This document shows, piece after piece, positions 6,998 to 38,192 of a DNA stretch of 39,009 nucleotides. A program made the translations under genes and the position numbers. This DNA comes from an uncultured Bacilli bacterium. Its GTDB lineage: Bacteria; Bacillota_I; Bacilli_A; RF39; UBA660. The stretch covers positions 1 through 39,009 of the forward strand of contig CANQOD010000001.1 of assembly GCA_947625395.1 (NCBI GenBank). The letters run 5' to 3'. Numbering within the stretch: the stretch's first letter is position 1; each line of letters starts with the position of its first letter. A model generated the notes under the pieces. The model worked only from the letters and a program-made list of their open reading frames with translations. It was not told where the DNA came from and ran no database searches.

Positions 6998-7014
6998 TTG
7001 AAATGGGGGATAGA

Positions 7015-9921
7015 ATGAAAGATTTTGTGCATGCGAAAAAATTGCGAATTTTATGTTTATTGCTATTAGGAGGATGCATTGCTTTTTGCTGTTGTTTTTT
7101 CTTTTTGAGTCAAAATCCGGAAACATTTCATGATATGATTGTTGAATTTGTTGCTTACACAAAGACAAATAAATCCGTGGAAATCAACTGCTTTTGGTTC
7201 GTGACAGGAGTGGGCGTTCTTCTTTTAGTACTTGATTTTCTAAGAGATTTGTATCGGAAGAAAAAAGAAGAAAAGGAGAAAGTAGTGACGCCTTTTTTTG
7301 CTGTTGTGGTAACGATGATAACGGTGTTAGTGGGACATTACATCTTTACGATGACAACGCTTCCATTTGTGTTACTTGCTTTATGTTTGCTACTCCTTGC
7401 CCATAAGTGCATTCCTGGCAAAGAAGCGCATACACTGGTTGCTTTTTGTTTTCTTTTTTATGCTTTCTATGGTGTCTTTGTTTTCATCAATCATTTTGTT
7501 GAAGTTGCTGTTCAAAAAGAGTTGCTTTTCATTGCTTCTTTTTTAGTTACATTATGGTGTGTTTGTAAAGAAGAGAAAAAGGATATTTTAAGAAAACTCA
7601 TTTTAGTTGCCCAAATTCCGATTTCTTTGCCATTTCTTAATTTTCTTGTCGACAAGTATCTTTATCAAGGCAAGATGATGACACTTCCTCAGCCTTTCTT
7701 TGCTGCCCTTGTTTTTTGGAGTATACTCCTTGGGGTGATGGTCTTTAATCTCGTTCACTTGTTCCGTACTTGGAAAAAGAAAGATGCAACTTTAGACCAG
7801 CTTATCGCACTTCCATCCATTTTGACTATTTTTATGCTCAATTCTATTCAGGGAACGATTTATGGTACCGCAAATCTGATTACGATTCCTGATTATCATC
7901 ATCCAGGAGAAAATATTCAAGCGTTCCATCAGATATTTTTAAAAGGACAAACGCCGTATCAAACTTATATTCCTGTTTCAGGACTCTTTTCTGTCGTTAT
8001 CGGTTTTCTCTTGGAGCTCTGTGGAGGGGTGATGACGCATTATAAAAGCGCACTTGTTCTATTTGAATTGTTTTTCTCATTGATTACCATTTGGCTTGTA
8101 AGCCGACATCTTTCTAAAACAGAGAGCCTTTTGTTCTCGATGCTTGTCTTACTTGTCAGTTATAATCGCATCAGTCTTATCATGGCCATTCTTTTGATTC
8201 TGTTGTTCCCTCGACTGATTGCCAATAAGAATTGTTGGTTAAAAGTTTGGTTATGGCTCTGCTTTTTAGGAGGACTTTATTATCCGCTCTATGGCGCCGC
8301 AGTTTTATTAGGAACGCTTCCTTTTGGCATTGGCCAGTTCATTGGTTATTTAAAGTCTACAGATTTTAAAAAGCAACGCAAGCAAGTTTCCTTTTATGTT
8401 TGGTGGGGAGTTACATTGCTTCCGATTGTCCTTTGTATTCCCTTGCTCATTCGCATGTTAAAGCATACCATGACCTATTCTGGTCAATCGCTTTTAGCAG
8501 ACAGTATTTCTGTCTTTACGCAAGAATTGCCTGAGGGATTCTTACAAATTTTAGGACCAGGCAAATTGCTTGCTCAATTGTGCTATTGGTGTCTTCGTTA
8601 TGTCATTCCGGCTGGTGCGATATGGTTATTTACGTTGCTGTTATTAGGCTTGTTCTCTTCTTGTAAGAGTAAAAAAGATGTTTGGCAAAAAATCCAAACA
8701 CCAGCATTCTTATTACTCCCCGCAGGTCTATTCATTTTAGCAGTTTCTTATACGTTTACATTGATGCGGGCAGATTATCAGATGCTGTTATCACGAACAG
8801 GCAATATTATCACCATTGTCTGTGGGATGATTTATCTCATTATTGTCTTTAAAAACTATCAGAAAAGTTTATTTTATCCGATTACCTTTGGCGTTGTTTT
8901 AAGTATTTTAATCCAACTTGGTTCGTCACCGCTGACAATGGAAAAATATCAACTTGTTCATCATTACAATGTTCCAAGTGACTATACTTATGTAGAAGAG
9001 GGGGATTTACCAAGAATTGGAACTGGTTTTGTTTCTACAAAAGTATCTTATTTAACTTCGAAAGATGGGGAAGAATATACCATCGAAAATATGAAGCAAT
9101 TACACGATACTGCCCAAAAATTATTGCAGTATGACCCTGATTTAAGTTTTGTTCTTTATGGGCCACTTGCCCTTTATTATATTTTAGATTTGAAAACAGT
9201 TTCGCAACCCTCCATTGCCGCAATCAAATCGAAAAAAACATCAGAGGAATTTATTGAAGTGGTGAAACGGGAAAAGCCTGTGATTGGAAGATATCTTGCC
9301 GATACGCTTGCCAATTATTATATTTATCATTATTTAATGACGACCGATGATTATCAATATTCGAGTGAATATGATGTCTTCTTACCAACGGAATTGTATC
9401 AAAAGATTGATGGACAAAAAGAGGGAGAATGGAAGTGTGCCTCTCAGATAAAAACGAATGATTTAGGAAAAGCACCTGCTTCTTTAGGAGAATCTTATCA
9501 AACATTGAAGAAAAATTTTAAAGAAGTGAAGATGCAATATCAAGTCAAGACAAATCGGGATGAAAAAACAGCATCTTATACGTATCAATTTACCACTCCT
9601 ATTCAAAAAGATGAGGTCGATTTTCTCTATCTAGAAGTGGATACGAATCGAGATTTTTACAATGAAAAATCGCTGCGCAATCGTTTACAAATTGACCTGA
9701 CCAATATGGACATTCCAGTGACTGTTTCCTGGGGTGGAGAAGAAAAAATAACGGCGCTATTGAGTCGTGGACGCCTCCTCATTGGCTTAGGAGTTGATTG
9801 TGACTGGTTACTTCAAAGTCATTCATCCTTACAAATTCAAATCGAGGGAATAGAACCACAATATCAAGTGGCGATAAAGAAAATGCAATTTTTGAAATTA
9901 AAAGAAGCAAAAGGGAAATAA
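7015..9921 (+). CDS. Large polytopic membrane protein with ~320-aa C-terminal non-membrane domain, paralog A (unknown family; possibly GT-C-like)
   Basis: 968 aa counted from the M at 7015, which aligns with the paralog B start MKxFVHxKK. It has many hydrophobic helices through roughly residue 640, then a hydrophilic C-terminal domain. It starts within ~20 nt of the permease stop. It is collinear with 9931-12810. Confidence 0.8.
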   Translation: MKDFVHAKKLRILCLLLLGGCIAFCCCFFFLSQNPETFHDMIVEFVAYTKTNKSVEINCFWFVTGVGVLLLVLDFLRDLYRKKKEEKEKVVTPFFAVVVTMITVLVGHYIFTMTTLPFVLLALCLLLLAHKCIPGKEAHTLVAFCFLFYAFYGVFVFINHFVEVAVQKELLFIASFLVTLWCVCKEEKKDILRKLILVAQIPISLPFLNFLVDKYLYQGKMMTLPQPFFAALVFWSILLGVMVFNLVHLFRTWKKKDATLDQLIALPSILTIFMLNSIQGTIYGTANLITIPDYHHPGENIQAFHQIFLKGQTPYQTYIPVSGLFSVVIGFLLELCGGVMTHYKSALVLFELFFSLITIWLVSRHLSKTESLLFSMLVLLVSYNRISLIMAILLILLFPRLIANKNCWLKVWLWLCFLGGLYYPLYGAAVLLGTLPFGIGQFIGYLKSTDFKKQRKQVSFYVWWGVTLLPIVLCIPLLIRMLKHTMTYSGQSLLADSISVFTQELPEGFLQILGPGKLLAQLCYWCLRYVIPAGAIWLFTLLLLGLFSSCKSKKDVWQKIQTPAFLLLPAGLFILAVSYTFTLMRADYQMLLSRTGNIITIVCGMIYLIIVFKNYQKSLFYPITFGVVLSILIQLGSSPLTMEKYQLVHHYNVPSDYTYVEEGDLPRIGTGFVSTKVSYLTSKDGEEYTIENMKQLHDTAQKLLQYDPDLSFVLYGPLALYYILDLKTVSQPSIAAIKSKKTSEEFIEVVKREKPVIGRYLADTLANYYIYHYLMTTDDYQYSSEYDVFLPTELYQKIDGQKEGEWKCASQIKTNDLGKAPASLGESYQTLKKNFKEVKMQYQVKTNRDEKTASYTYQFTTPIQKDEVDFLYLEVDTNRDFYNEKSLRNRLQIDLTNMDIPVTVSWGGEEKITALLSRGRLLIGLGVDCDWLLQSHSSLQIQIEGIEPQYQVAIKKMQFLKLKEAKGK

Positions 9922-9930
9922 GGAGGCCTT

Positions 9931-12810
9931 ATGAAAAGTTTTGTACACTTAAAAAAAATAAAAATATTGGGTGTTTTATTTGCCTTTGGGATGCTAGGAA
10001 TGGCTCTTTGTTTTTTACTTGCAGGCCAAACACCAGAAACGTTTCATGATATCATTGCTGAAGCCTTAGTGATTTTAAAAAATAATAAATCTATGGAGCT
10101 CAATTGCTTTTGGATAATTGTCTTCGTTGGCAGTTTCGTTTTACTGATAGATATGATTCGAACAAGGAAAAAGAGAAGAGAAGAGAAACAACCAGTTTTT
10201 TCTTCTTTCTCGCTGGTTCTTTTAGCACTTGCAACTGGAATGGTTCTCTATTATTTCTTGACGATGCATGTTCCTCTTTTCCTTTTAACCACTTTCTTTC
10301 TTTTATTACTATCGCACCACTTTCTGAAAGGAAAAGAAGCAAAAATTTGTCTGATAAATTGTTTTTTATTTTATTTCTTCTATGGTGGACTGAGCTTGCT
10401 TAATTTTTCTTTTCATGCGCTTTTTATTTCGAAAGAATTCTTATTGCTCCTTTCTTTCCTTATTACTTTATGTCTTTTGAAATTAGAGCAAAAGAAGCCT
10501 ATTTTAGAGAATTGTATTCTCTTGAGTCAAACTACAATTCCACTCATTCTTTTGAATTATTTAGTGGATTGTTATCAATATCAAGGGCAAGAAATCCATG
10601 TTCCACTTCCATTTTTTGCAAAGCTTTTCTTTGGAACCTTACTGCTTAGTTTTCTTGTTTACAATTTTTATTATCTTTATAAAAACTGGAGTCGAAAAGA
10701 AAAAAATATCAATCAACTTCTGTCATTTGCAACCATCATCACAATTTTTATCATCCATTCGGTTTCCATGAATACCAGTGCGATTTTACCAACTGATTTA
10801 CATCACACAGGTGAAAATATTCAGGCTTTTCATCAAATTTTTAGTAAAGGACAGATTCCTTATCAAAACTACATTCCTGTATCGGGTCTTTATTCCGTCT
10901 GCGTTGGTTTTATTTTAGAACTTTGTGGTGGCGTTATGATGCATTATAATGTTGCGGTTGCGATTTATACAACGATTTTTGCCATTCTTACCATTGTTTT
11001 AATTCACTGTCATTTAGACAAAAAAGCAACTTTATTATTGAGTCTATTGTTTCTTTTTGTAAACTATAACCGCGTTTATCTCATTTTAATCTCATTGCTG
11101 ATTTTATTATTACCTAAGCTACGAGCAAAAAAGAATTTGTGGTTAAAGGTTTGGATATGGTTATGCTTTTTAGGAGGACTTTATTATCCCGTTTATGGCG
11201 TGTCAGTTTTACTTGGAACTTTGCCATTTGCCCTTTATCAAATGATTAGTTTCATTCGTTCTAAAGATGGAAAAAGCAAGTTACATACTTTCCGGTTTTA
11301 TCTCGAATGGTTTGTTGTGCTTCTACCAATCTTCTTGGCAGTTCCTATCTTGTTGCACTTACTCAAACATCTTTTAGTCTACTCTTCACAATCCTTATTG
11401 GCAGAGGGTGCGTCTGTTTTTGCCCAAGAAGTGCCTGAGGGATTATTCCAAATTTTTGGTGGAGGACAATTTCTTGCCAAATTAGTCTATTATTGTTTAC
11501 GTTATATGATTCCTGCTTTAGCGATTTGGATTTTTGTTCTCTTACTCTTACAGTTTTTTCAAGATTGCAAGCACAAGAAAGATGTTTTTAAAATTTTTGC
11601 TCATCCGAAATTTTTCTTAGTTGTTTCAGGACTTCTCCTTTTATTAGTAGGGTATCATTTTACCCTTTTACGTGCTGATTCGGGACGATTATTATCACGA
11701 ACTGGCTATTTAATTGAAATTGTTTGTGGCATTTTGTTTTTCATGATTACAGTTCGATATGAGCGTCCGAATCCTTTCTCAGCCATTGTCCTTGGAATAA
11801 TGGTGGCCATCTTGGCTGTACTGGGTGATTCGCCTATTACATTTCCAAATTATACGCTTCAAGCCCATTATACGATTGAAGAGGACTATCAGTTGATTGA
11901 AAATAGTCCACTTCCAAGACTGGGAACTGGCTTTGTTTTGAAAGAAGATGCCTACTTTACCGTGTTATCCAAGAAAATTACCTTTCAAGAATTAAATACC
12001 TTATCTAACAATGCCCAAAAATTGCTTCAATATAATCCGGATTTAAAATTTGTTTTATATGGACCTTTGGCAGCTTACTATATTTTAGATTTAACAACAA
12101 CTGCACAGCCATCCATTTATGCGATTAAGAGTCAAGAAGCAAGCGAAGAGTTTTTAACGATAATTCAAAAAGAAAAGCCTGTTGTGGGTACGTTTATTGC
12201 GAATGCAGAACAGAGCTATTATATTTATCATTATTTAATGACAACGGATGATTATCTTTATGCAGAAGAATATGAGGCTTTTTTACCTAGAGAACTTTAT
12301 CAGAAGATTTATGGAAATACGGTAGGGAGTGATAAACGTCTTGCCAACTTCACCATTGCTGATTTAGGTGTTTCATCGTCTGTGTTTGGTAATTCTTATG
12401 AAGCTTTAAAAACAAGATTTACGAAAGTCCAACCAACAATGCAGTCTATTTGTACGCGACAAGATAAATTGTATACATGTACCTATACGTTTTCAAAAGC
12501 ACTTGCCAAAGAAGAGGTTGATTTTCTCTATTTGGAAGTTGATACCAATCGTGATTTGTACAATGAAAGGGCATTTGCAAATCTTTTGCGCATTGACTTT
12601 ACCAATTCAGATATCCCTGTGAAAGTCACGTGGGGGGGGGAAGAAATAAAATGTTTATTATTCCAAGGAAAACTTTTGATTGCACTTGGAGTGAATAGTG
12701 ATTGGTTGTTATCAGATAAAGAGAAGATTTCAATTCAAATCGAGGGAATCGAACCGCAATATCAAGTGGCGATTTCCAAAATCGAATTTTTAAAACTGAA
12801 AACAGCATAG
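9931..12810 (+). CDS. Large polytopic membrane protein, paralog B of 7015-9921 (unknown family)
   Basis: 959 aa with SD AGGAGG before the ATG at 9931. Blocks shared with paralog A include PETFHD, HH[PT]GENIQAFHQIF.KGQ.PYQ.YIPVSGL, LKVW.WLCFLGGLYYP.YG, YYIYHYLMTTDDY, EVDFLYLEVDTNRD and IQIEGIEPQYQVAI. Confidence 0.8.
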   Translation: MKSFVHLKKIKILGVLFAFGMLGMALCFLLAGQTPETFHDIIAEALVILKNNKSMELNCFWIIVFVGSFVLLIDMIRTRKKRREEKQPVFSSFSLVLLALATGMVLYYFLTMHVPLFLLTTFFLLLLSHHFLKGKEAKICLINCFLFYFFYGGLSLLNFSFHALFISKEFLLLLSFLITLCLLKLEQKKPILENCILLSQTTIPLILLNYLVDCYQYQGQEIHVPLPFFAKLFFGTLLLSFLVYNFYYLYKNWSRKEKNINQLLSFATIITIFIIHSVSMNTSAILPTDLHHTGENIQAFHQIFSKGQIPYQNYIPVSGLYSVCVGFILELCGGVMMHYNVAVAIYTTIFAILTIVLIHCHLDKKATLLLSLLFLFVNYNRVYLILISLLILLLPKLRAKKNLWLKVWIWLCFLGGLYYPVYGVSVLLGTLPFALYQMISFIRSKDGKSKLHTFRFYLEWFVVLLPIFLAVPILLHLLKHLLVYSSQSLLAEGASVFAQEVPEGLFQIFGGGQFLAKLVYYCLRYMIPALAIWIFVLLLLQFFQDCKHKKDVFKIFAHPKFFLVVSGLLLLLVGYHFTLLRADSGRLLSRTGYLIEIVCGILFFMITVRYERPNPFSAIVLGIMVAILAVLGDSPITFPNYTLQAHYTIEEDYQLIENSPLPRLGTGFVLKEDAYFTVLSKKITFQELNTLSNNAQKLLQYNPDLKFVLYGPLAAYYILDLTTTAQPSIYAIKSQEASEEFLTIIQKEKPVVGTFIANAEQSYYIYHYLMTTDDYLYAEEYEAFLPRELYQKIYGNTVGSDKRLANFTIADLGVSSSVFGNSYEALKTRFTKVQPTMQSICTRQDKLYTCTYTFSKALAKEEVDFLYLEVDTNRDLYNERAFANLLRIDFTNSDIPVKVTWGGEEIKCLLFQGKLLIALGVNSDWLLSDKEKISIQIEGIEPQYQVAISKIEFLKLKTA
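12632..12640 (+). repeat. G9 homopolymer inside the paralog B coding sequence (candidate slipped-strand contingency tract)
   Basis: Read directly: acg tgg ggg ggg gaa gaa, encoding T-W-G-G-E-E. Paralog A encodes the same residues as tgg ggt gga gaa gaa (9730-9744) with no long run. Confidence 0.9.
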
Positions 12811-12919
12811 AACGTCAAATTTTGTCAAGTGATTATAAAAAGAGAAAAGATATCAAAAATCTATCTCTTTTTCTTTTTATTTATTGTATAATAAAAGTAA
12901 GAATGTGGAGGGAAGATGT

Positions 12920-15900
12920 ATGAAAAATGCGAAAAAAATCATCCTATTTATCATCATAATGAGTTTCTTTTATCTTGCTCCAAAAAGCGTTTTTGCTTAT
13001 TCGAAATCAGACTATGCAGGAAGAGGACTTTGTGGGAATTTTGAAGTTGCTGGATTTCATAGTGATGGACAAATTGTGAAAGTTTCTTGTGCGAATACAT
13101 TCCAAGAAGCCAAAAATTATATGCAGTCAAATGGGGCAGACGATTTGGCTATTTTAACGAAAATAAATGGTGTGACAACAGTGATAGATGCCAATGTGGC
13201 TTTGGTAGAATTGCATCAAAATCCCATCCAGGATACGTTTGATATTTATACCCAGCCAACCCTTTCTTTTGCACATACTTACATGTCTACATCTTACTCC
13301 GGTGATGATGCAGTTTTATTAGATAGTTCTACTTCGCCCATGGGATATGTTGCGAAAATTTTAGTCAATGACCGAACGGGTTGGGTTTTAGAAGAGAATT
13401 ATGAGATTGTTCCAATTACTTGGGTCAAATCAAGTAGTTATTATCAAATCTCCAACGATTCTATCTATCACCACTATGTTTCCGATATGCATGCTTCGAA
13501 AGAGGGGACTTATGGAACGACGATTGGTCCAAAACCTACGATGCTTAGTAATGGCAAATATTATAGTTATGATGGACACTATTTTTATACGGATTTAACA
13601 ACTATGATTAAAGATAATAGAGCCGGTAATCACAATCATGCTGTCAATAAAAATGAAGCTTATTATAATTATTACATGTATTTATCCAATCACACGAAAT
13701 CCAATTATTCCAGTGTGAACATTGATGAATATGTAAGAGATAACATTGGAACTGCCGGTGATGTTTATGGCATGACAGCTTATAGTTTTACTTCAAGACT
13801 TTATGGTAAGGGGGCGTTCTTCTATTATGCCCAAGAAAAATATGGCGTGAATGCACTTTTAGCATTCAGTTTAAGTCGAAATGAAACAGGCAATGGAAAG
13901 AGTAACTTAGCCGTCAATAAAAACAATGGGTTTGGTTTAAACGCAGTCGATTCAAATCCTTATGCGAATGCCAACCGTTATGCAAACTTTGCAAGCAGTA
14001 TTTTAGGATTCGCAGAAGATTGGGTTACCTATGGCTTTGTTGATGCGGAGAATTGGCGTTATTATGGGCCACAATTTGGAAATAAATTAAGTGGAATGAA
14101 TGTAAAATATGCTTCCGATGTTTATTGGAGCGAAAAAATGGCCTCTAATTATTATTCTTTTGACAAAGCAAAAGGAATGCAAGATTATAATTATTATCAA
14201 TTAGGGGTGACAACCGATAAAATCGATGCGAGAAAAGCACCCGCTCTTGGCAACAATGTTGTCTATGAATATCCGGAAGCAGAAGATGCTGTTGTGATTA
14301 TCGGAGAAGTACAAGGAGAGAATGTAGGCGGTAGTACAACCTGGTATAAGGTTATGAGTGATATCAATATTGATAACCAGTTCAACCGCATTACTTCAGG
14401 TCCTTATAACTGGAATGCATTTGTTTATGTTCCAGCTGCTTATATTAAAAAAATCAACACTGCAAAAAAAGGTTATGTATCTCCTAATTCCGCAGCAAGA
14501 TTCCCTGACAGTGAATATACGTATAAATTATTGATTGAAAATGGCGTTGTGACTCCACAAGTTGCTCTTTCAACAAGAGATGCAAACTTCTATCGTGACC
14601 CCTCTTTAACCTCTTTAAGAGGACAAGTGATGAAAAAGGACCGCTTTGTCGTTGTTTATGCGATAGCTTATGATAAAAATGGAGCTCCTGTTTCTTATTT
14701 AGTCACATCCGATTATATTGCCGACCAAAAAGAATGGGTGCGGGCGGATAGTTTACAATTTGTAAAGAGTACCTATGGAAGAGTCAGTGTTTCAGCCCTT
14801 TCTAATAACAATAATCCTTATGTAAAAGTTTATAAAGAAAAAAGTACTTCTAGTGAAGAAATTAGTGGTCAATATAACTATTCGATTGTTCCTGTCTTCC
14901 GTCAAGAGTTTGTCGGCAATCAAGCTTGGTTCCTCGTTCAAGCAGACGTGACGGGGGAGAAGCCAGTGAATGGTTGGGTGCTTGCGGGAACGAGTAATTC
15001 CTCTATTTCACTGGATGTGACCAATGTGCTTAATAATGCTCCTGTGATTTTAGCAGAAAACAAAACGATTGTACAAGGAAGCAAGTGGAATGCCAAAGAG
15101 GGTGTTACAGCGAATGACCAGGAAGATGGTGACCTTACGAGTCGTCTTCAAGTCACCAGTGATGGCGTACAACCAAACGTCGTTGGCACTTATCAAGTCA
15201 CTTATCAAGTGAAAGATAACTATGGTCAAACAGTGACAAAGACAATTACGGTGACTGTCACCCAAAATCAAAAGCCAGTGATTACTGCAGAGAATCGTCG
15301 AATTGAAGTGAACAGCGCTTTTGAACCATTGGATGATGTCAAAGCGATGGACCAAGAAGATGGGGACATTACGGACCGAATTGAAGTGACCCAAAATACA
15401 GTAGAACCATCAAAAACAGGTACTTATCAAGTGACCTATCAAGTCCAAGATAGCTTTCATCAGACAGTGACGAAAACAATCAAAGTCGATGTCGTTGAAG
15501 ACATTGATGCGCCAGTTGAAGAAACAGGCAACTTCTATTTCGAGTATTTAAAAGAAGTAGATGGACAACTAGAGATAAAAGGATACCATGCGATTGATGG
15601 AGTCGTTCCAAAAGAAAAACAAAAAGTGACTTTTGAATTGCTTCTTGAAAATATTCTAACGGGTGAAATTACGAAACAGTCCCTTTCTCAAATCACTGAC
15701 CCTAAAGAGATGAGCGTTAAAGTTTATGCCAAAGACGGAAAAGATTATACGTATTCATGGTTCAAGGGTGCAATTGATATCGATGCTTTAGATGATGGGG
15801 ACTATCGGATGTATATTCAAACAACGATTGATAAAACATACGCAAAAACGCTTGTCAACAACTTGTTCTTTATGCCACAAGTGACCATGTATCAAGCAGA

Positions 15901-16444
15901 GAAATCAGTGACGACCCATAATGATTATTTAGATGATAATATTGCTTTAGAGTTGATTGTTCGTCAAGAAGCGATTGCTGAAAAAACAGCTGATAGTGTA
16001 AGAAATATGTATAATCAATTTAATCAACTTGAATTTGTGGATGGAAAACTCCGTATGCAAGGTCTTTCATATTCATATGGAATGAATCTTGCGAAAGAAC
16101 AACAAGTGAAAAGAGAGATTATCTTTGAAAATACGAAAACATATCAAAAATATCGCTTCAATGCGGGCAGCATTACGAATGGACCTTTTTCAATTGGAAA
16201 TACGTTAAAAGATAATTTGGATAAGACACGGTCTTGGTTTGATACAACAATTGATTTAAGCAAGCTTGAAAAAGGAAACTATGCGATTTACATTGCGACT
16301 GAAAGCAATATGAAAGACTATGATGAATTAACTGAGTTGCTTTTCCGTTCCGTTGACCATATTAAATGGGAGGGAGAAGAGAGAACTTATCAATTTGTCT
16401 TTGATAAAGACATTCGGTATCGCATTGAATTAAATGTACAATAA
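12920..16444 (+). CDS. Secreted multidomain cell-wall hydrolase-like protein: signal peptide, GH73-like N-acetylglucosaminidase domain, SH3b-like domains, 2 Ig-like repeats, 2 C-terminal repeat modules
   Basis: SD GGAGGG (12907-12912) lies 7 nt before the ATG at 12920. The signal peptide is MKNAKKIILFIIIMSFFYLAPKSVFA. GH73-type motifs are LAFSLSRNETGNGKSNLAVNKNNGFGLNAVD and NVKYASDVYWSEKM. SH3b-like segments include TTWYKVMSD...AFVYVPAAYIKKI. Confidence 0.8.
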   Translation: MKNAKKIILFIIIMSFFYLAPKSVFAYSKSDYAGRGLCGNFEVAGFHSDGQIVKVSCANTFQEAKNYMQSNGADDLAILTKINGVTTVIDANVALVELHQNPIQDTFDIYTQPTLSFAHTYMSTSYSGDDAVLLDSSTSPMGYVAKILVNDRTGWVLEENYEIVPITWVKSSSYYQISNDSIYHHYVSDMHASKEGTYGTTIGPKPTMLSNGKYYSYDGHYFYTDLTTMIKDNRAGNHNHAVNKNEAYYNYYMYLSNHTKSNYSSVNIDEYVRDNIGTAGDVYGMTAYSFTSRLYGKGAFFYYAQEKYGVNALLAFSLSRNETGNGKSNLAVNKNNGFGLNAVDSNPYANANRYANFASSILGFAEDWVTYGFVDAENWRYYGPQFGNKLSGMNVKYASDVYWSEKMASNYYSFDKAKGMQDYNYYQLGVTTDKIDARKAPALGNNVVYEYPEAEDAVVIIGEVQGENVGGSTTWYKVMSDINIDNQFNRITSGPYNWNAFVYVPAAYIKKINTAKKGYVSPNSAARFPDSEYTYKLLIENGVVTPQVALSTRDANFYRDPSLTSLRGQVMKKDRFVVVYAIAYDKNGAPVSYLVTSDYIADQKEWVRADSLQFVKSTYGRVSVSALSNNNNPYVKVYKEKSTSSEEISGQYNYSIVPVFRQEFVGNQAWFLVQADVTGEKPVNGWVLAGTSNSSISLDVTNVLNNAPVILAENKTIVQGSKWNAKEGVTANDQEDGDLTSRLQVTSDGVQPNVVGTYQVTYQVKDNYGQTVTKTITVTVTQNQKPVITAENRRIEVNSAFEPLDDVKAMDQEDGDITDRIEVTQNTVEPSKTGTYQVTYQVQDSFHQTVTKTIKVDVVEDIDAPVEETGNFYFEYLKEVDGQLEIKGYHAIDGVVPKEKQKVTFELLLENILTGEITKQSLSQITDPKEMSVKVYAKDGKDYTYSWFKGAIDIDALDDGDYRMYIQTTIDKTYAKTLVNNLFFMPQVTMYQAEKSVTTHNDYLDDNIALELIVRQEAIAEKTADSVRNMYNQFNQLEFVDGKLRMQGLSYSYGMNLAKEQQVKREIIFENTKTYQKYRFNAGSITNGPFSIGNTLKDNLDKTRSWFDTTIDLSKLEKGNYAIYIATESNMKDYDELTELLFRSVDHIKWEGEERTYQFVFDKDIRYRIELNVQ
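15038..15499 (+). repeat. Two tandem ~77-aa Ig-like (DUF5011-type) repeats within the secreted protein
   Basis: Repeat 1 is APVILAENKTIVQGSKWNAKEGVTANDQEDGDLTSRLQVTSDGVQPNVVGTYQVTYQVKDNYGQTVTKTITVTV. Repeat 2 is KPVITAENRRIEVNSAFEPLDDVKAMDQEDGDITDRIEVTQNTVEPSKTGTYQVTYQVQDSFHQTVTKTIKVDV. Confidence 0.85.
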
Positions 16445-16495
16445 AAGGAAGCAAGTTCACTTTGACGAGAACATACTTCCTTTGAAATTAGGAGA

Positions 16496-16528
16496 AAGAT
16501 TGATAGTTGGATATCAATCTTTTTTTTG
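16496..16528 (+). terminator. Rho-independent terminator after the secreted-protein gene
   Basis: A perfect 10-bp stem AAGATTGATA (16496-16505) / TATCAATCTT (16512-16521) with a 6-nt loop, followed by a T-run. Confidence 0.85.
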
Positions 16529-16608
16529 AAAAAAAATAAGAAAAAGTAAAAAGAAAAACATTTCAATAAAAAATCGTCGAATTTCCTCGAAAAAATTGCA
16601 AATTCCTA

Positions 16609-16640
16609 TTGACTTGGGGGGGGGTAGTTTATTGTATGAT
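16609..16640 (+). promoter_or_regulatory. Candidate promoter with a G9 tract (16616-16624) in the -35/-10 spacer
   Basis: -35 TTGACT (16609-16614) and -10 TATGAT (16635-16640). The spacer is 20 nt as sequenced and contains nine consecutive G. SD GAGGTG precedes the ATG at 16703. Confidence 0.5.
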
Positions 16641-16702
16641 GGATGCAAGGTGGGAAATACCCAAATAAAACAAGAAGAAAATGGATATGAGGTGTAATTG
16701 TA

Positions 16703-18160
16703 ATGAGAAAAAGGAAAGTCTTCTTTAAGAAACGATATTTACGCTATTGGATGCTATTTGTTATTGGGATGTTGTTGCTGCTTTGTCGTTCTCTTTACAG
16801 TTTAAAATATCCCTCTTTATATGCGGAAGATGGCACGTGGATTTCTCTTCTTTTAAAAGATGGCTTTCTTCATACCGCACTGCATGTACGATATGATTAT
16901 TTTGAATTTGTCATTGTTCTATTCCAACAACTTGCCTTGACATGTGCCCAGCTTTTTTGTAAAGGAGATTTAAGAACCATTCCTATTTTTATCACTGTTA
17001 TCTCTTGCGTCTATTATACTTTTGTGGCGATGTTACCAGCAATGACCATGGGCAATCGTTTGAATTGGCTTGCGAAAACTTTCTTGTTTTTTGCGATTTT
17101 ATGCTTACCACTTGGTCAGTCTTATACGGAAATACTTGGAAGAACTTTACAGTGTCATATGCTCGTTTGGGTGATTGTTTTTTGCTTCCTCGTCTATCGT
17201 TATGACCATAAAAACGACCCGACAAAAAAATGGAAAATCTTTTTGATTGACTTTCTCTTGATTTTTTTGATTCCCTCTTTTCCAGCTGCTATCATCGGAT
17301 ATGGAATTTATGGCATCATCGAACTCAAAGACATTCTTCAAGCCTATTTCATAGGTCCTCAAAAGAAGCTTTCGTTTTCTAGGATAAAAGAAATGCTAAA
17401 ACAAGAATGGAAAAAAAGTTCTATTCGTTCCTTGGTCGTGAGTGGTCTTATCATCGTTGTGATGGGATGCATTCTTTTCTTTCGAATCAAAGCAACAAAT
17501 CAAGGAATACCTCTTTCTCAGCAAGAACCTTTTCCATACCAAAAACTACCAGAAATTCTCTTACGTGTTTTCTGTTATCCACTTGTCTTTGGAATTTATC
17601 ATTCCATGAATCATTTGAAAGCTTTATTTATCGTGGGTCTGACAGTTGCTTTGTTTGTTTTCTTTTTCTTTCAACTTGCGAAAGAACATCGAAAATTTTA
17701 TCTTCTTACACTTCTTTCTTGGCTGCTTTCCGGCTTTGTTATCATCGTGACTAGAACCTCCATTTTTGGCTTTTTGAATCATTATCAGGTGAGTTATCCC
17801 GACCGGTATTATATGATTAGCAACGTCTGTCTCTTCTTTCCGATTGCCGTTCTTTTAAGTGAGAAAAAAGCGCTCTTTCAAATGGTTCGTGCCATTGTTA
17901 TTTTCTATTTTTGTTATTCCATTTTCGTTTATGGAGGTCGAATTTTCACCTTTTATAAAAATGAAAATGACATAGGTGGCATTCATGATGGAACTTGGCG
18001 GGAGGCCTTACAGAAGAGTTATGATGAAAATAAGAAGACCAAAGATGGCAAGTACTATCTTGTTGAGTTAGAACCTATCACCTGGTGGTGTGAAATTCCC
18101 GTTCAAAATGTAGAACGGTCCGTTGATAAAAAAAGGCATACAAGAAGCCTTTTGAAATAG
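16703..18160 (+). CDS. Polytopic membrane protein, unknown function (possible glycan-modifying GT-C-like or acyltransferase-like enzyme)
   Basis: 485 aa with roughly 11-12 hydrophobic helices. The first extracytoplasmic segment carries an acidic motif (PSLYAEDGTWISLL). The C-terminal ~70 aa are hydrophilic. Confidence 0.7.
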   Translation: MRKRKVFFKKRYLRYWMLFVIGMLLLLCRSLYSLKYPSLYAEDGTWISLLLKDGFLHTALHVRYDYFEFVIVLFQQLALTCAQLFCKGDLRTIPIFITVISCVYYTFVAMLPAMTMGNRLNWLAKTFLFFAILCLPLGQSYTEILGRTLQCHMLVWVIVFCFLVYRYDHKNDPTKKWKIFLIDFLLIFLIPSFPAAIIGYGIYGIIELKDILQAYFIGPQKKLSFSRIKEMLKQEWKKSSIRSLVVSGLIIVVMGCILFFRIKATNQGIPLSQQEPFPYQKLPEILLRVFCYPLVFGIYHSMNHLKALFIVGLTVALFVFFFFQLAKEHRKFYLLTLLSWLLSGFVIIVTRTSIFGFLNHYQVSYPDRYYMISNVCLFFPIAVLLSEKKALFQMVRAIVIFYFCYSIFVYGGRIFTFYKNENDIGGIHDGTWREALQKSYDENKKTKDGKYYLVELEPITWWCEIPVQNVERSVDKKRHTRSLLK

Positions 18161-18225
18161 GAAAGGGAAGTAGAAAAGAAACTTTATTTTTCATTACTTC
18201 CTTGAGGAAAAATACAAAAATTTAT

Positions 18226-18254
18226 TTGTCATTCTCTCTATTTATTGGTATACT
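18226..18254 (+). promoter_or_regulatory. Sigma-A type promoter for the gtrA-like operon
   Basis: -35 TTGTCA (18226-18231), 17-nt spacer, extended -10 TGgTATACT (18246-18254). A second TATAAT lies immediately downstream at 18255-18260. Confidence 0.55.
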
Positions 18255-18281: not shown

Positions 18282-18707
18282 ATGTCAGAAAAAATCATAA
18301 AACTTATCAAACAAGCTTTCCATTTTTTTGCTATTTCCGGTGTAGGATGGATTGTCGATATGTGTATCTATACGATTTTATCAAAATGGATACCGGTCAC
18401 AATAGCCAATATCATTAGTTCAACGACAGCAGTTACCTATGTGTACACTGTTTCAACGAAAAAGATATTTGAAAATAAAAGCAATATCAATATTCGAACC
18501 AAATACATTTTCTATATCATTTATCAGATGGCTTTGATTCTATTATCGAGTGTGGTCATTAGTGGTCTTTCTCATCTTTTACTCGTACATTTTCGAAAAG
18601 TTAAATTCATCACTAAATATGCGAAGATATGTGCTAAAATATTGATAACACCATTTACAATGGTGATGAATTTTCTTTTCATGAAGATATTAATTGAAAA
18701 AATTTAA
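18282..18707 (+). CDS. GtrA-family small membrane protein (putative polyprenyl-phosphate-sugar flippase)
   Basis: 141 aa with four TM helices. The N-terminus FHFFAISGVGWIVDMCIYTIL is typical of GtrA-like proteins, and the gene sits next to a GT2 gene. Confidence 0.75.
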   Translation: MSEKIIKLIKQAFHFFAISGVGWIVDMCIYTILSKWIPVTIANIISSTTAVTYVYTVSTKKIFENKSNINIRTKYIFYIIYQMALILLSSVVISGLSHLLLVHFRKVKFITKYAKICAKILITPFTMVMNFLFMKILIEKI

Positions 18708-18719
18708 GGAGTGTGACAT

Positions 18720-19514
18720 ATGGAGAAAATAATGGTATTTATACCCATGTATAATTGTGAAAAGCAAGTGACAAGAGTGCTAGAACAATTCGATAAGCAA
18801 GTTTGTAAGTATATCCAAGAAATTGTTGTCATCAACAATCGCAGTACTGATAACGGAGAAGAGAAAGTGCGTGCAGTCATCAAGGAGGGAAAAATACCTA
18901 CTCAGATAACTTTGCTAAGAAACGAAGAAAATTATGGGCTTGGTGGTTCTCATAAAGTTGCTTTTAATTATGCCCTTGAAAATGATTATGATTATGTGAT
19001 TGTTTTACATGGGGATGATCAGGGAAGTATTCGAGATGTTTTACCATACATCAAAAGCAAAGAATATCAAAAATATGATTGCATGTTAGGGGCTCGTTTT
19101 ATGAAAGGGTCAAAAATTGATGGATATTCTAAATTAAGAATTTTTGGAAACAAAGTATTCAATACTTTATTTTCCCTTGTTCTTCATGAAAAAGTGTATG
19201 ATTTAGGTTCTGGACTTAATATGTATAAAATGGAATCATTAAAGTCAAAGTACTATCTTCAATTGCCTGATACGCTTTATTTTAATGATGTTATGATTCT
19301 AATGCAAAAATATCGCAACATGAATGTAAAGTTTTTTCCAATCAGTTGGAGAGAAAAAGATCAAGTATCGAATAATAAATTAATGTCGTTTTCAATGAGT
19401 TTATTACAAATGTTGCGAAAGTATATTTTTTCTAAGAAAAAGTATCTCAATAGTGATATGAGAACAAAAATCATTGATGAATACAAGGCTGAAATAATTG
19501 AAAGGAGTAAATAA
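18720..19514 (+). CDS. Family 2 glycosyltransferase (DPM1/polyprenyl-phosphate GT-like catalytic domain, no C-terminal TM helices)
   Basis: 264 aa. SD AAGGAG lies 6 nt before the ATG. Motifs are MVFIPMYNCEKQV, VVINNRSTDNGEEK and VLHGDDQGS. Confidence 0.75.
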   Translation: MEKIMVFIPMYNCEKQVTRVLEQFDKQVCKYIQEIVVINNRSTDNGEEKVRAVIKEGKIPTQITLLRNEENYGLGGSHKVAFNYALENDYDYVIVLHGDDQGSIRDVLPYIKSKEYQKYDCMLGARFMKGSKIDGYSKLRIFGNKVFNTLFSLVLHEKVYDLGSGLNMYKMESLKSKYYLQLPDTLYFNDVMILMQKYRNMNVKFFPISWREKDQVSNNKLMSFSMSLLQMLRKYIFSKKKYLNSDMRTKIIDEYKAEIIERSK

Positions 19515-23802: not shown

Positions 23803-23888
23803 AAAAAAAGAAGAATCAAAAAGAAATGGTGGATGTAAGAAAAAAGATAGCCTATCGCTTACAAAAACTGTTTACGAGGAGTATAAAG

Positions 23889-24818
23889 ATGGAAAAAATA
23901 TCAATCATTGTTCCAAGTTATAATGAAGAACAAGCCCTACCTTTACTGTATAAAGAGGTCAAACAAGTGATGCAACAGATGAAAAAAGTGGATTTTGAAA
24001 TTTTATTGGTGGATGATGGAAGCAAAGATAAAACCTTGGAAGTTTGCCGGAAGTTATCTACTAAAGACCGTCATGTCAAATATCTTTCTTTTTCAAGAAA
24101 TTTTGGGAAAGAAGCAGCTATTTATGCTGGACTAGAAATGGCCACTGGTGATTATGTGACGTTAATGGATGCGGATTTACAAGACCCACCTGCTTTACTA
24201 AAAGAGATGTACCGTTTGATAAAAGAAGAGGGGTATGATTCTGTTGGAACAAGAAGAGTTTCGCGGAAAGGTGAACCACCCATTCGTAGTTTCTTTGCTC
24301 GTTGCTTTTACAAATTGATTCATAAAATCAGTCGAACAGAAATGGTTGATGGGGCAAGAGATTATCGGTTAATGACTAGACAAATGGTCGATGCAATTTT
24401 ATCATTGAAAGAATACAATCGTTATTCAAAAGGCCTCTTTAATTTTGTGGGATTTCGGACTAAATGGTTAGAATATGAGAATGTGGAACGCGTTGCTGGC
24501 GAGACAAAATGGAGTTTTTGGAAGCTTTTGATTTATGCAATGGATGGGATTATTGCTTTTTCTACGGCACCGCTTTGGATTGCTGTCTTTGTGGGGATTT
24601 TATTTTGTTTTATTTCCTTTATTGCCATTCTTGTCATCATTATTAAAACGCTCTGTTTTGGGGACCCCGTAGGAGGATGGCCCTCTCTTGTTTGTATCAT
24701 TTTTATGGTGAGTGGGATTCAACTCTTTTGTACAGGAATCATTGGAGCTTATTTATCAAAGACCTATTTAGAAACCAAGAAAAGACCCATTTATATTATT
24801 CAGGAACAAAGTCAGTAG
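23889..24818 (+). CDS. Polyprenyl-phosphate glycosyltransferase (GtrB/CsbB/ArnC-type GT2 with two C-terminal TM helices)
   Basis: SD GAGGAG precedes the ATG at 23889; the track start 23826 lacks an SD. Motifs are ISIIVPSYNEEQALP, LLVDDGSKDKT and LMDADLQDPP. C-terminal helices are LWIAVFVGILFCFISFIAILVIII and SLVCIIFMVSGIQLFCTGIIGAYL. Confidence 0.85.
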   Translation: MEKISIIVPSYNEEQALPLLYKEVKQVMQQMKKVDFEILLVDDGSKDKTLEVCRKLSTKDRHVKYLSFSRNFGKEAAIYAGLEMATGDYVTLMDADLQDPPALLKEMYRLIKEEGYDSVGTRRVSRKGEPPIRSFFARCFYKLIHKISRTEMVDGARDYRLMTRQMVDAILSLKEYNRYSKGLFNFVGFRTKWLEYENVERVAGETKWSFWKLLIYAMDGIIAFSTAPLWIAVFVGILFCFISFIAILVIIIKTLCFGDPVGGWPSLVCIIFMVSGIQLFCTGIIGAYLSKTYLETKKRPIYIIQEQSQ

Positions 24819-33685: not shown

Positions 33686-36241
33686 ATGAAACGTAGTGAA
33701 GTAGACCGTCAAAAATTAAGTCCAATGATGCAACAGTATCTTGACATTAAAGAACAATATGAAGATAGTATTTTGTTCTTTCGTATTGGCGATTTTTATG
33801 AAATGTTCTTTGAAGATGCCCTGCTTGCATCACGAGAGTTAGAGTTAACTTTAACAGGAAAACAAGCAGGAATTGGCGAAAAGGTGCCCATGTGTGGCGT
33901 TCCATTTAAAGCTTACAGTGGCTATTTAGATAAGTTGATTGAAAAAGGTTATAAAGTGGCCATTTGTGAACAATTAGAGGACCCGAAATCAACCAAAGAA
34001 ATGGTCAAGCGGGATGTCATTCAAGTCGTGACCAAAGGCACGCGCCTTGATAGAACGATTGATGCGAAAGAAAATAATTTCATTGGTAGTATTTATGATT
34101 TTGAGTATTGTTATGTGTTGTCTTATGCGGATATTTCTACGGGTGAATTTTATAGTATGCTCTTGAATGATGATGAGGCAATTGTCTTACGAGAAATTAC
34201 AAGACTCTCTTTAAAAGAAGTGATTGTCAATAGTAAATTTGACCGGACTTTGCTGTTGAAATTGCGTCAAAATTATCAACTGATGGTGACCATTACGGAT
34301 GATTTATATCAAGAAGAAGACTATGCCGCCATTTATAAAAAGATGAAAGATATTCGCATTGTAACAGGCGTGGAACATCTTCTTTACTATCTTTTAGATA
34401 CCAAGAAAGGAGATTTATCACATTTACAAGAAGTTGTTTTACTACAAGAAAAAGAGCATCTGATTTTAAGTGGCAATACCATGTATAATCTAGAACTTGT
34501 AGAAACAATGCGTACGAGAGAAAGACAGAATAGTTTGTTGTGGTTTTTAGATAAGAATAAAACAGCCATGGGGAGTCGTTTCTTAAAACAAGCCATTGAA
34601 AGTCCGTTGACCAATCGGGAAGCGATTGAAAGACGTTATCGTTTTGTGGATACTTTAAGAGTTCAGTTTATTTTACGGGACGATTTACGCGAAGCACTAG
34701 ACCGTGTCTACGACTTAGAACGATTGTCAGGCCGAGTGGCTTATGGAAACTTGAATGCAAGAGATTTATTACAGTTAAAGACTTCCTTGAAAGCGTTACC
34801 TGAAATTCAAAGAATCTTAGAAGAGTTATCTTATGACCGTGCCATTGAAACTTTTGATGAGCTTTATGCACTCTTAGAAAAATCGATTTGTGAAGAAGCA
34901 CCGATTTCAATCAAAGAGGGTTCTTTAATTAAGGAGGGCTATCATGAAGAGCTCGATTCGTTGCGGCATATTCGAAGTGGTTCTAAAGATTTCTTACTGC
35001 AATTTGAACAAGAAGAAAAAGATAGGACAGGCATTCGAACGTTAAAAGTTGGATACAATAAAATATTTGGCTATTATATTGAAGTGAGCAAAGGACAAAT
35101 TCCACTTATTAAGGAGGAGTTTGGCTATGAAAGACGACAAACCCTTGCCAATTGTGAACGGTTCACAACCCCTCTTTTAAAAGAAAAAGAAAATATTATT
35201 TTAGGGGCAGAAGAGAAAATTATCCAATTAGAATATCAATTGTTCATGGAAATCAGAGAGGTTGTAAAACGGTACATTGCTCCTTTACAAAAGACAGCGA
35301 AAATTTTAGCAGAGGTGGATATGCTCCAGGCATTTTCCCAAATTGCAGATGATTATCATTTCGTTCGTCCTGAATTAACCGAGAAAAAAGAGATTCGTAT
35401 GATAGAAAGTAGGCATCCAGTGATTGAAAAGGTGATGCAAGACAAGTATGTTTCGAATGATATTGTGATGGATGAAAATACAGATATTCTGTTAATCACA
35501 GGACCGAATATGGCTGGGAAGTCCACTTATATGCGCCAGCTAGCCATTATTGTTATCTTAGCGCAAATTGGTTCTTTTGTTCCTTGTACTTCTTGTAAAA
35601 TGCCTATCTTTGATAAGATTTTCACGCGAATTGGAGCGAGTGATGATTTGGTAAGTGGTGAATCTACTTTTATGGTAGAAATGAAAGAGGCCAATGAGGC
35701 ATTACAGGAAGCAACTGAGAAGAGCTTGATTCTGTTTGATGAATTAGGTCGAGGAACCGCAACGTATGATGGAATGAGTCTTGCTCAAGCGATTTTAGAA
35801 TACATTCATGATAAAGTTCACTGCAAAACTTTATTCTCTACGCACTACCATGAATTGACTACTTTGGAAGAAGCACTTCCTCATCTTAAAAATGTACATG
35901 TTTCTGCGCAAGAAGAAGAGGGCAAATTGATTTTTCTTCACAAAGTCAAAAAAGGTGCTGTCGATAAGAGCTATGGAATCAATGTGGCTTCACTTGCACT
36001 TTTACCAACAAGTTTAATTCAACGAGCCAAAGAAATTCTCTCGATTTATGAAACACAAGAGCAACATGAAAAAGTCTTTACGCAAACGAGTTTGTTTTCT
36101 TTAGAAGAAGAGTCCGTGAAAGAAGAAAAGAATCCGTTAAAAGAACGTTTACAAGAAGTAAATCCACTTGAAATGACGCCGATTGAAGCTTTAAACTTTC
36201 TATATACTTTAAAAGAAGAAAGCAAAAAAGATGCAGAATAA
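33686..36241 (+). CDS. mutS: DNA mismatch repair protein MutS
   Basis: 851 aa. The N-terminus reads LSPMMQQYLDIKEQYEDSILFFRIGDFYEMFFEDA. Walker A is GPNMAGKSTYMRQ, followed by STFMVEM and DELGRGT. Confidence 0.97.
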   Translation: MKRSEVDRQKLSPMMQQYLDIKEQYEDSILFFRIGDFYEMFFEDALLASRELELTLTGKQAGIGEKVPMCGVPFKAYSGYLDKLIEKGYKVAICEQLEDPKSTKEMVKRDVIQVVTKGTRLDRTIDAKENNFIGSIYDFEYCYVLSYADISTGEFYSMLLNDDEAIVLREITRLSLKEVIVNSKFDRTLLLKLRQNYQLMVTITDDLYQEEDYAAIYKKMKDIRIVTGVEHLLYYLLDTKKGDLSHLQEVVLLQEKEHLILSGNTMYNLELVETMRTRERQNSLLWFLDKNKTAMGSRFLKQAIESPLTNREAIERRYRFVDTLRVQFILRDDLREALDRVYDLERLSGRVAYGNLNARDLLQLKTSLKALPEIQRILEELSYDRAIETFDELYALLEKSICEEAPISIKEGSLIKEGYHEELDSLRHIRSGSKDFLLQFEQEEKDRTGIRTLKVGYNKIFGYYIEVSKGQIPLIKEEFGYERRQTLANCERFTTPLLKEKENIILGAEEKIIQLEYQLFMEIREVVKRYIAPLQKTAKILAEVDMLQAFSQIADDYHFVRPELTEKKEIRMIESRHPVIEKVMQDKYVSNDIVMDENTDILLITGPNMAGKSTYMRQLAIIVILAQIGSFVPCTSCKMPIFDKIFTRIGASDDLVSGESTFMVEMKEANEALQEATEKSLILFDELGRGTATYDGMSLAQAILEYIHDKVHCKTLFSTHYHELTTLEEALPHLKNVHVSAQEEEGKLIFLHKVKKGAVDKSYGINVASLALLPTSLIQRAKEILSIYETQEQHEKVFTQTSLFSLEEESVKEEKNPLKERLQEVNPLEMTPIEALNFLYTLKEESKKDAE

Positions 36242-36292
36242 GTTTGTCTTTGCAAGAAAGTTAAAATTTGATATGATAAGAAAGGTGAGAGC

Positions 36293-37961: not shown

Positions 37962-38192
37962 ATGGAAAAAAAAGAAAAAACATTTGAAGAAAATTTAGAA
38001 GCTTTAGAAGCTTTGGTTAAAAAACTAGAAAGTGGGGAAACACCTCTTGACCATGCGATTGAAGACTTTAATGAAGCCATGAAACTGGCAAAACTTTGTG
38101 ATGAGAAATTAAAAAAGTCAGAAACAATGCTTTCTAAAATTGTAAAAGAAGATGGTACAACAGAAAACTTTGAAATTGAAGAAGAGAAATAA
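37962..38192 (+). CDS. xseB: Exodeoxyribonuclease VII small subunit
   Basis: 76 aa, FEENLEALEALVKKLESGETPLDHAIEDFNEAMKLAKLCDEKL, with SD AGGAGG. It immediately follows xseA. Confidence 0.92.
   Translation: MEKKEKTFEENLEALEALVKKLESGETPLDHAIEDFNEAMKLAKLCDEKLKKSETMLSKIVKEDGTTENFEIEEEK

Follow-up and report, generated by a model that had tools for sequence, protein, structure and literature searches.

Switches operated by repeat slippage have been described chiefly in Neisseria, Haemophilus, Campylobacter, Treponema, Mycoplasma and other pathogens, and the heritable surface variation of gut commensals has been studied mostly as invertible promoters. In Mycoplasma hyorhinis, a Mollicute, a poly-A tract in the −35/−10 spacer of the vlp genes controls surface variation. 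Other arrangements are also found: the tract of opc overlaps the −35 element, the poly-C tract of Bordetella fim acts together with BvgA, and the tract of Treponema pallidum tprE/G/J acts together with a CRP homolog. In the low-GC genomes of Campylobacter jejuni and Helicobacter, rare tracts of G8–G13 are concentrated in surface-glycan loci, including glycosyltransferase genes, where they are mostly intragenic and act by frameshifting. The gtr operons of Salmonella are phase-variable as well, but their variation is epigenetic (Dam/OxyR) and not repeat-based.

The closest described systems have a G or C tract between the −35 and −10 elements. In Neisseria, a poly-G tract in porA and a poly-C tract in fetA occupy this position and control the promoter (PMC5320596). 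In tp0126 of T. pallidum, poly-G is likewise located between −35 and −10, and tracts of 7–11 G vary in vivo (PMC7864442). A Gram-positive case is the poly-T tract in the Spy1336/R28-Spy1337 intergenic region of Streptococcus pyogenes M28, in which one-nucleotide indels shift promoter spacing and transcript level (PMC7098570). Separately from these switches, multi-component glycosylation systems consisting of GtrA, GT-A and GT-C proteins are known to decorate cell-wall polymers of Gram-positive bacteria (PMC8035078).

The window, by which we mean the whole stretch of DNA analysed, is a complete NCBI contig of 39,009 bp with a GC content of 34.7%. It harbors a tract of nine Gs (G9) inside the promoter-like spacer in front of a gene for a 485-aa membrane protein (Table 1). 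The likeness to porA, fetA and tp0126 is a G/C tract in the −35/−10 spacer of a surface-related gene, with an optimum of about 17 nt (PMC7864442, PMC5320596), and the tract lengths of those systems, 7–14, include the G9 of the window. They come, however, from Gram-negative or spirochaete pathogens, have porins or receptors as cargo and are backed by proven length variation and reporter data, whereas the window belongs to uncultured low-GC gut Bacilli, and has a glycosyltransferase as cargo and two ON windows predicted from overlapping alternative hexamers. The S. pyogenes tract is similar in being a Gram-positive intergenic homopolymer that alters promoter spacing (PMC7098570), but it is poly-T, lies between divergent genes, and has an adhesin and a regulator as cargo. 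The M. hyorhinis vlp tract also differs, being poly-A with lipoprotein cargo in a wall-less organism, while the organism of the window clearly makes wall polymers; a link between the two is that some records assign relatives of the window MutS to Tenericutes or Mycoplasma. A switch in the window would belong to a known kind, in an unusual host and on an unannotated GT-C family.

Table 1. Features of the window discussed in the text.
Feature	Position	Strand	Details
Coding G9 in paralog B (9931–12810)	12632–12640	+	TGG GGG GGG GAA
First hairpin, immediately 3′ of the stop of the upstream gene (1186-aa surface protein)	16444–16483	+	RNA fold, inverted repeat I1
Intrinsic terminator	16488–16529	+	18-bp stem into T8 (16520–16527); RNA fold
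A/T-rich stretch 5′ of the −35	16529–16608	+	holds AATTTCCT and AAATTCCT
−35-like hexamer TTGACT	16609–16614	+	5/6 matches; direct read, relaxed scan
Alternative, weaker −35-like TTGGGG	16614–16619	+	overlaps the start of the tract
T between TTGACT and the tract	16615	+	direct read
G9 tract between TTGACT and TATGAT	16616–16624	+	proposed slippage-prone element
Alternative −10-like TATTGT	16630–16635	+	15 nt from TTGACT at G9
−10-like hexamer TATGAT	16635–16640	+	5/6 matches
Shine-Dalgarno GAGGTG	16689–16694	+	8 nt 5′ of ATG 16703
485-aa polytopic membrane protein gene	16703–18160	+	GT-C-fold model, uncharacterised family
GtrA-type flippase gene	18282–18707	+	Pfam GtrA_DPMS_TM
GT2 gene	18720–19514	+	Pfam
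PgfS-like GT2 gene	23826–24818		NCBIfam
Promoter-like pair of gene start 461			TTTACA, spacer 18, TATAAT
Promoter-like pair of gene start 5466			TTGATT, spacer 17, TATAAT
Promoter-like pair of gene start 18282	18226–18254	+	TTGTCA, spacer 17, TATACT, with TGn
Promoter-like pair of gene start 33686			TTGCGA, spacer 17, TACAAT
Promoter-like pair of gene start 36293			TTGCAA, spacer 16, TATGAT

A first-pass annotation of this DNA had placed TTGACT, the G9 tract and TATGAT at these positions with a spacer of 20 nt, and direct reading confirmed both the positions and the spacer, nine nucleotides of which are G. No promoter pair is found in the 258-nt gap 5′ of the 485-aa gene by a standard scan with spacers of 16–18 nt. 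In a relaxed scan of positions 16445–16702 (spacers of 14–22 nt), TTGACT-20-TATGAT is the top-ranked pair with 10 of 12 matches, which agrees with the earlier view of the two hexamers as the only good promoter-like elements before the ATG; in silico, it is placed 63 nt before the start codon and 3′ of a terminator. The excess of its spacer above 17 nt is confined to the G run. The five other promoter-like pairs read in intergenic gaps of the window have spacers of 16–18 nt, many of them with a TGn extension, so that the 485-aa gene is the only one among the pairs read with a spacer out of range. Furthermore, when the promoters of the upstream gene for a 1186-aa surface protein and of the downstream gtrA-like gene are aligned with that of the 485-aa gene, the gap falls exactly at the G tract. 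The A/T-rich stretch preceding the −35 may serve as an UP-like element. The context of TATGAT, TTTATTGTATGAT, recurs in the promoter that precedes the 1186-aa gene, and a sequence TTTATTG(G)TATNNT surrounds the −10 in three consecutive promoters of the locus (12877–12892, 16625–16640 and 18238–18254); it could represent an extended −10 context peculiar to this lineage, or the promoters could have a common origin. As for the 1186-aa ORF, its listed TTG start lies within its own promoter (12884–12931), and the likely start is ATG 12920 (MKNAKKIILFIII..., signal-peptide-like), located 3′ of TATAAT at 12887–12892.

The gap also begins with two hairpins. The stem of the terminator has a perfect core of 11 bp (16495–16505 / 16512–16522; inverted repeat I4, 100% complementary), and a segment of 106 nt carrying both hairpins (16440–16545) folds with a dG of −29.7 kcal/mol and a z score of −5.75, a stability reached by none of 200 shuffles. 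RNA folding thus bears out the strong terminator that had been noticed 5′ of the promoter; a consensus terminator scan missed it because the A/T-rich stem has few G-C pairs. Since this terminator and the promoter-like pair of the downstream gene bracket the 485-aa gene, the latter is probably a single-gene unit. Its ORF is intact and is provided with a good ribosome-binding site.

The tract itself is exceptional in its surroundings. Runs of G with lengths of 1–5 number 4717, 944, 171, 39 and 9 in the window, those of 6–8 are absent, and there are two of length 9, which are the only G runs longer than five and are both located in a cell-wall polysaccharide cluster; the longest C run is at most 4. 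A G8 pattern has four matches, two per G9, versus 0.16 expected, and none of 100 shuffles reaches four. A 9-mer lying wholly inside the spacer of a pair with at least 10 of 12 matches is found at 1.1% of plus-strand positions. The G9 tract is therefore statistically anomalous and not a chance feature. Being uninterrupted and longer than about 7 nt, it falls within the lengths at which slippage is expected. A tandem-repeat scan of the window gave no other candidates for repeat-type contingency loci, and the composition profile gave no sign that the 485-aa gene is a recent foreign insertion.

The second G9 is located in a coding region. Paralogs A and B are tandem genes (7003–12810) for polytopic membrane proteins of about 960–970 aa that are 51% identical and contain no known domain; their homologs are widespread in polysaccharide loci of gut Bacilli and Lachnospiraceae, usually beside GT2, GtrA and LPG_synthase_TM genes. 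At the site of the paralog B tract, paralog A reads TGG GGT GGA GAA and keeps the WGGEE motif. Of 33 Gly-Gly pairs, only the one in the paralog B tract is written GGG-GGG, and GGG accounts for 12% of Gly codons. Because it sits 57 codons 5′ of the stop, a frameshift of +1 or −1 alters only the last 57 residues, giving a product of 905–922 aa in place of 959 aa. For this reason, the idea that the two tracts together generate four combinatorial surface states is regarded here as speculative.

A parallel case was reached through a homolog search with paralog B, followed by fetching the contig. L097 (GCA_947623665.1, CANQHJ010000013.1) is a MAG contig of a related uncultured Bacilli lineage with 24.9% GC, and its only G or C run of six or longer in 22.8 kb is a G9 at 9868–9876, against 0.0006 expected. 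This G9 follows a terminator-like hairpin, lies 11 nt 5′ of an extended −10, TGcTATAAT, and is about 60 nt 5′ of the probable start of a gene for a 942-aa homolog of paralogs A and B (44% identity), which is followed by GT2, GtrA and LPG-synthase-like genes. A related lineage thus offers an independent parallel of a poly-G tract in a promoter. In addition, the same protein family is associated with a coding G9 in the window and with a promoter G9 in L097, which counts toward a switch. The L097 promoter pair is TTGTGG-18-TATAAT, in which the G9 overlaps the only −35-like element; spacing is in range at G7–9 and out of range at G10 or more. Its dependence on spacing is less certain than that of the window promoter because of the extended −10 and the poor −35.

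Elsewhere such tracts are scarce. An internal G or C run of eight or longer is found in one of 13 non-redundant relatives' loci (167 kb in total), namely L097, so the device is sporadic and not universal. Twelve loci of distant GT-C homologs from metagenomes have no homopolymer upstream. A G7 in one relative (L003) was discarded as just a synonymous change of Gly-Gly codons. The end of another contig (L102, 17495–17520) carries C15 and C9 and looks like a terminal poly-G/C artefact, unlike the internal G9s. The window MutS is at most 70% identical to those of gut MAGs labelled uncultured Bacilli, Tenericutes or Mycoplasma. An exact look-up of the 485-aa protein returned no record. In cluster look-ups of eight window proteins, two had no exact record, and the NCBI records of the other six all lie on this contig; the ExoVII cluster also includes three near-identical proteins, which come from short contigs of Logan/ENA. 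Among about 15 billion proteins the locus has no second copy, a scan of metagenome contigs with a DNA pattern across the tract (gap of 3–20) gave no matches, a scan of one genome per species with the GT-C alignment returned no relatives of the 485-aa protein, and megablast of positions 16400–18200 against plasmids gave no match.

What would be switched is a surface-related enzyme. The 485-aa protein has no match in Pfam or NCBIfam, and a profile search of PDB sequences with its family gave no matches. Close homologs are very few, while a profile search collects about 400 representative relatives at 50% identity. An early structure model from four sequences was too poor for use (pLDDT 52.9), but an AlphaFold2 model from a 42-sequence alignment reached a pLDDT of 91.6 and a pTM of 0.92. 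The best 25 Foldseek matches of this model in the PDB are all GT-C enzymes (probability 0.97–1.0, TM 0.33–0.51), with AglB, PglB, STT3, Pmt, ALG9 and ALG12 among the matches. Two acidic residues just past the first transmembrane helix, E42 and D43 of a YAEDG motif, show at least 90% conservation across the 42 family members, and the positive-inside rule applied to the Lys/Arg-rich N-terminus would place their loop on the extracytoplasmic side. Judging from the model, the product is probably a GT-C-fold membrane glycosyltransferase that modifies a surface glycan; as far as sequence comparison goes, it represents an unannotated GT-C family. Such a surface-glycan-modifying product is typical cargo of contingency loci, which counts toward the switch reading. 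In some family members the N-terminus is extended by about 200 aa, and in one member of 1350 aa the stretch immediately preceding the family domain matches the C-terminal end of the Pfam YfhO model.

The surroundings are in line with this prediction. The window cluster includes several GT2 genes, one GT4 gene, a TagGH-like ABC transporter, sugar-nucleotide enzymes, an O-antigen-ligase-like protein and the 1186-aa protein mentioned above, which is a glucosaminidase/Ig surface protein. The GT2 gene next to the flippase gene gives NCBIfam matches to AglJ and to a dolichyl-phosphate hexose transferase, although these are weak and far below the curated cut-offs. By analogy, the predicted GT-C enzyme together with the GtrA and GT2 proteins fits multi-component transmembrane glycosylation of Gram-positive wall polymers, the likeness being a GT-C enzyme beside a GtrA flippase and a GT2 in a wall polysaccharide cluster (PMC8035078). 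A difference from the known multi-component systems is that the sequence of the 485-aa protein places it in no described GT-C family. In other genomes, its homologs are situated inside an operon, after an ABC transporter and before MBOAT/AlgX, and have no promoter of their own.

Taken together, these observations make it somewhat probable, with a likelihood a little above even, that the G9 is the homopolymer spacer of a phase-variable sigma-A-type promoter of the porA/fetA/tp0126 type, driving a single-gene unit for a GT-C glycosyltransferase. A phase-variation switch had already been proposed in the first-pass annotation; its architecture, the anomalous tract, the surface-glycan cargo and the parallel in L097 stand in its favor, while neither the activator repeats attached to it (see below) nor the four surface states are supported. 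Points against the switch are that homologs of the 485-aa gene elsewhere are embedded in operons or lack an upstream tract, and that such tracts are sporadic among the relatives' loci. Replication slippage would add or remove Gs, which would change the distance and the rotational phasing between −35 and −10, and RNA polymerase would use the promoter better or worse depending on the spacing. Within a clonal population, expression of the 485-aa enzyme would then be switched in a heritable but reversible way, and with it one of the decorations on the cell-wall polysaccharide. The benefit may be surface variation, e.g., against phages or host immunity. In other words, we infer that the hexamers are a real promoter, that tract length varies and controls transcription, and that surface variation is what is gained.

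The relation between tract length and spacing can be written out for each pair. The distance between TTGACT and TATGAT is 16–18 nt at G5–7, no pair is in range at G8–9, and the weaker pairs TTGACT/TATTGT and TTGGGG/TATGAT come to 16–18 nt at G10–12. The promoter is accordingly predicted to be low, weak or off at the assembled G9 with its 20-nt spacer. That shortening to G6–G7 restores the spacing, as had been suggested, holds within the broader range of G5–7, but it is not the only route, because overlapping pairs come into range at G10–12. Since G9 lies between two predicted ON windows, a single slip of +1 could already raise expression. On the other hand, the strong configuration needs a loss of two or three Gs from G9, so there is no simple one-step toggle unless the weaker elements at G10–12 work.

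The rate of slippage is a related question. S. pyogenes encodes mismatch repair genes, and, unlike Campylobacter and Helicobacter, genera that lack MutS1/MutL, the window encodes an intact MutS (33686–36292), with which slippage rates may be modest or moderate rather than very high. The genes next to mutS on its 3′ side are nusB and xseA instead of mutL. A motif of the MutL N-terminus was found neither on the window contig nor within about 1 kb 3′ of mutS in 22 relatives; it was found 3′ of mutS in both Bacillus loci searched (L025, L026), and whether mutL exists in this lineage bears on homopolymer stability. An unlisted ORF of 76 codons (37962–38192, MEKKEKTFEENLEALEALVKKLESGE...), located 3′ of the gene for the exonuclease VII large subunit, is probably the small subunit XseB.

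Several other readings of the region were rejected. The two octamers AATTTCCT (16580–16587) and AAATTCCT (16600–16607) can be read directly, and they had been put forward as the direct repeats of a response-regulator or activator site abutting the −35. At least one equivalent pair of 8-mers with one mismatch is found, however, in 83% of dinucleotide shuffles of 16529–16640, so that the repeats do not exceed chance and the operator was dropped; the motif AAWTTCCT has seven occurrences in the window on both strands. An inverton was rejected as well: the only pair of inverted repeats flanking the promoter is 15 nt long, 80% complementary and A/T-rich (16591–16605 / 16904–16918), and it extends into the coding region. 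No recombinase family is found in the window. A sigma-54 promoter (GG...TTGC), judged by eye, has a spacing off by one and TTGT as its −12 element.

Among the rival explanations, the one with the most weight, though still unlikely, is that the tract is static. The G9 would then be no switch but an accident or a sign of decay toward gene loss, and low constitutive transcription would come from a poorly spaced promoter, from read-through or from an unrecognised promoter. This would be consistent with the fact that no length variation was observed in the protein look-ups and the metagenome-contig scan, that the assembled G9 gives a 20-nt spacer beyond the functional range, and that elsewhere the homologs do without a dedicated promoter. 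A neutral origin would, however, have to account for two G9 tracts in 39 kb with nothing between G5 and G9, and for a third G9 at the equivalent promoter position in a relative of 25% GC, where 0.0006 is expected; the intact 485-aa ORF with its good ribosome-binding site and the strong upstream terminator also speak against a static tract. Or the tract may be phase-variable through an activator, by setting the distance or the face between an upstream regulator site and the −10, or by overlapping the −35 as in opc. The tract of L097 indeed overlaps the only −35-like element of a promoter relying on an extended −10, another TTG (16614) runs directly into the tract of the window, and CRP modulation is reported to operate together with poly-G length (PMC7864442). 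This mechanism is nevertheless improbable for the window, which offers a good TTGACT, whose candidate regulator repeats do not exceed chance, and in which no regulator gene adjoins the unit.

The remaining explanations deny the tract itself or move its function to RNA, and both are very improbable. A sequencing or assembly artefact, such as poly-G from two-colour Illumina reads or a wrongly called homopolymer length, would have to be considered as the window contig probably comes from a MAG, the nearest relatives are all MAGs, and the L102 contig ends in C15 and C9. Both tracts of the window are internal, though, and at 9 nt are shorter than any assembly k-mer; the coding G9 is in frame within WGGEE, a motif conserved in paralog A; the G9 of L097, likewise internal, was sequenced in another project; and a length call off by one leaves the conclusion unchanged. 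It is just as hard to credit that the tract is transcribed from an upstream start and acts as a G-rich Shine-Dalgarno of a 10-codon leader ORF (ATG 16636, MMDARWEIPK) or as part of a 5′ UTR structure. The short ORF does start 11 nt 3′ of the tract, but there is no promoter-like pair between the terminator and the tract, for which reason a leader-peptide Shine-Dalgarno was rejected; a C-rich pairing partner is missing, with C runs of at most 4 in the window; no Rfam family was matched in the window; and the tract of L097 has no such ORF downstream. The phase-variable promoter spacer is thus retained as the preferred reading.

A wider interpretation is tentative and, taken as a whole, rather doubtful. 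Some uncultured low-GC gut Bacilli, whose relatives are MAGs labelled Bacilli, Tenericutes or Mycoplasma, might use rare G9 tracts as contingency loci that arose separately in the promoters and in the coding regions of membrane proteins modifying wall glycans, with the tract of the window being strongly ON at G5–7, OFF at G8–9 and weakly ON at G10–12 and thereby varying one decoration made by an undescribed GT-C family, plausibly as a defence against phages whose receptors are wall polysaccharides.

If the switch is real, the strategy of the poly-G promoter would extend to walled gut Firmicutes. The trait varied would be a decoration of the wall polysaccharide, with a bearing on phage receptors and host recognition, and metagenomic reads could be searched for heterogeneous tract lengths as a sign of switches of this sort.
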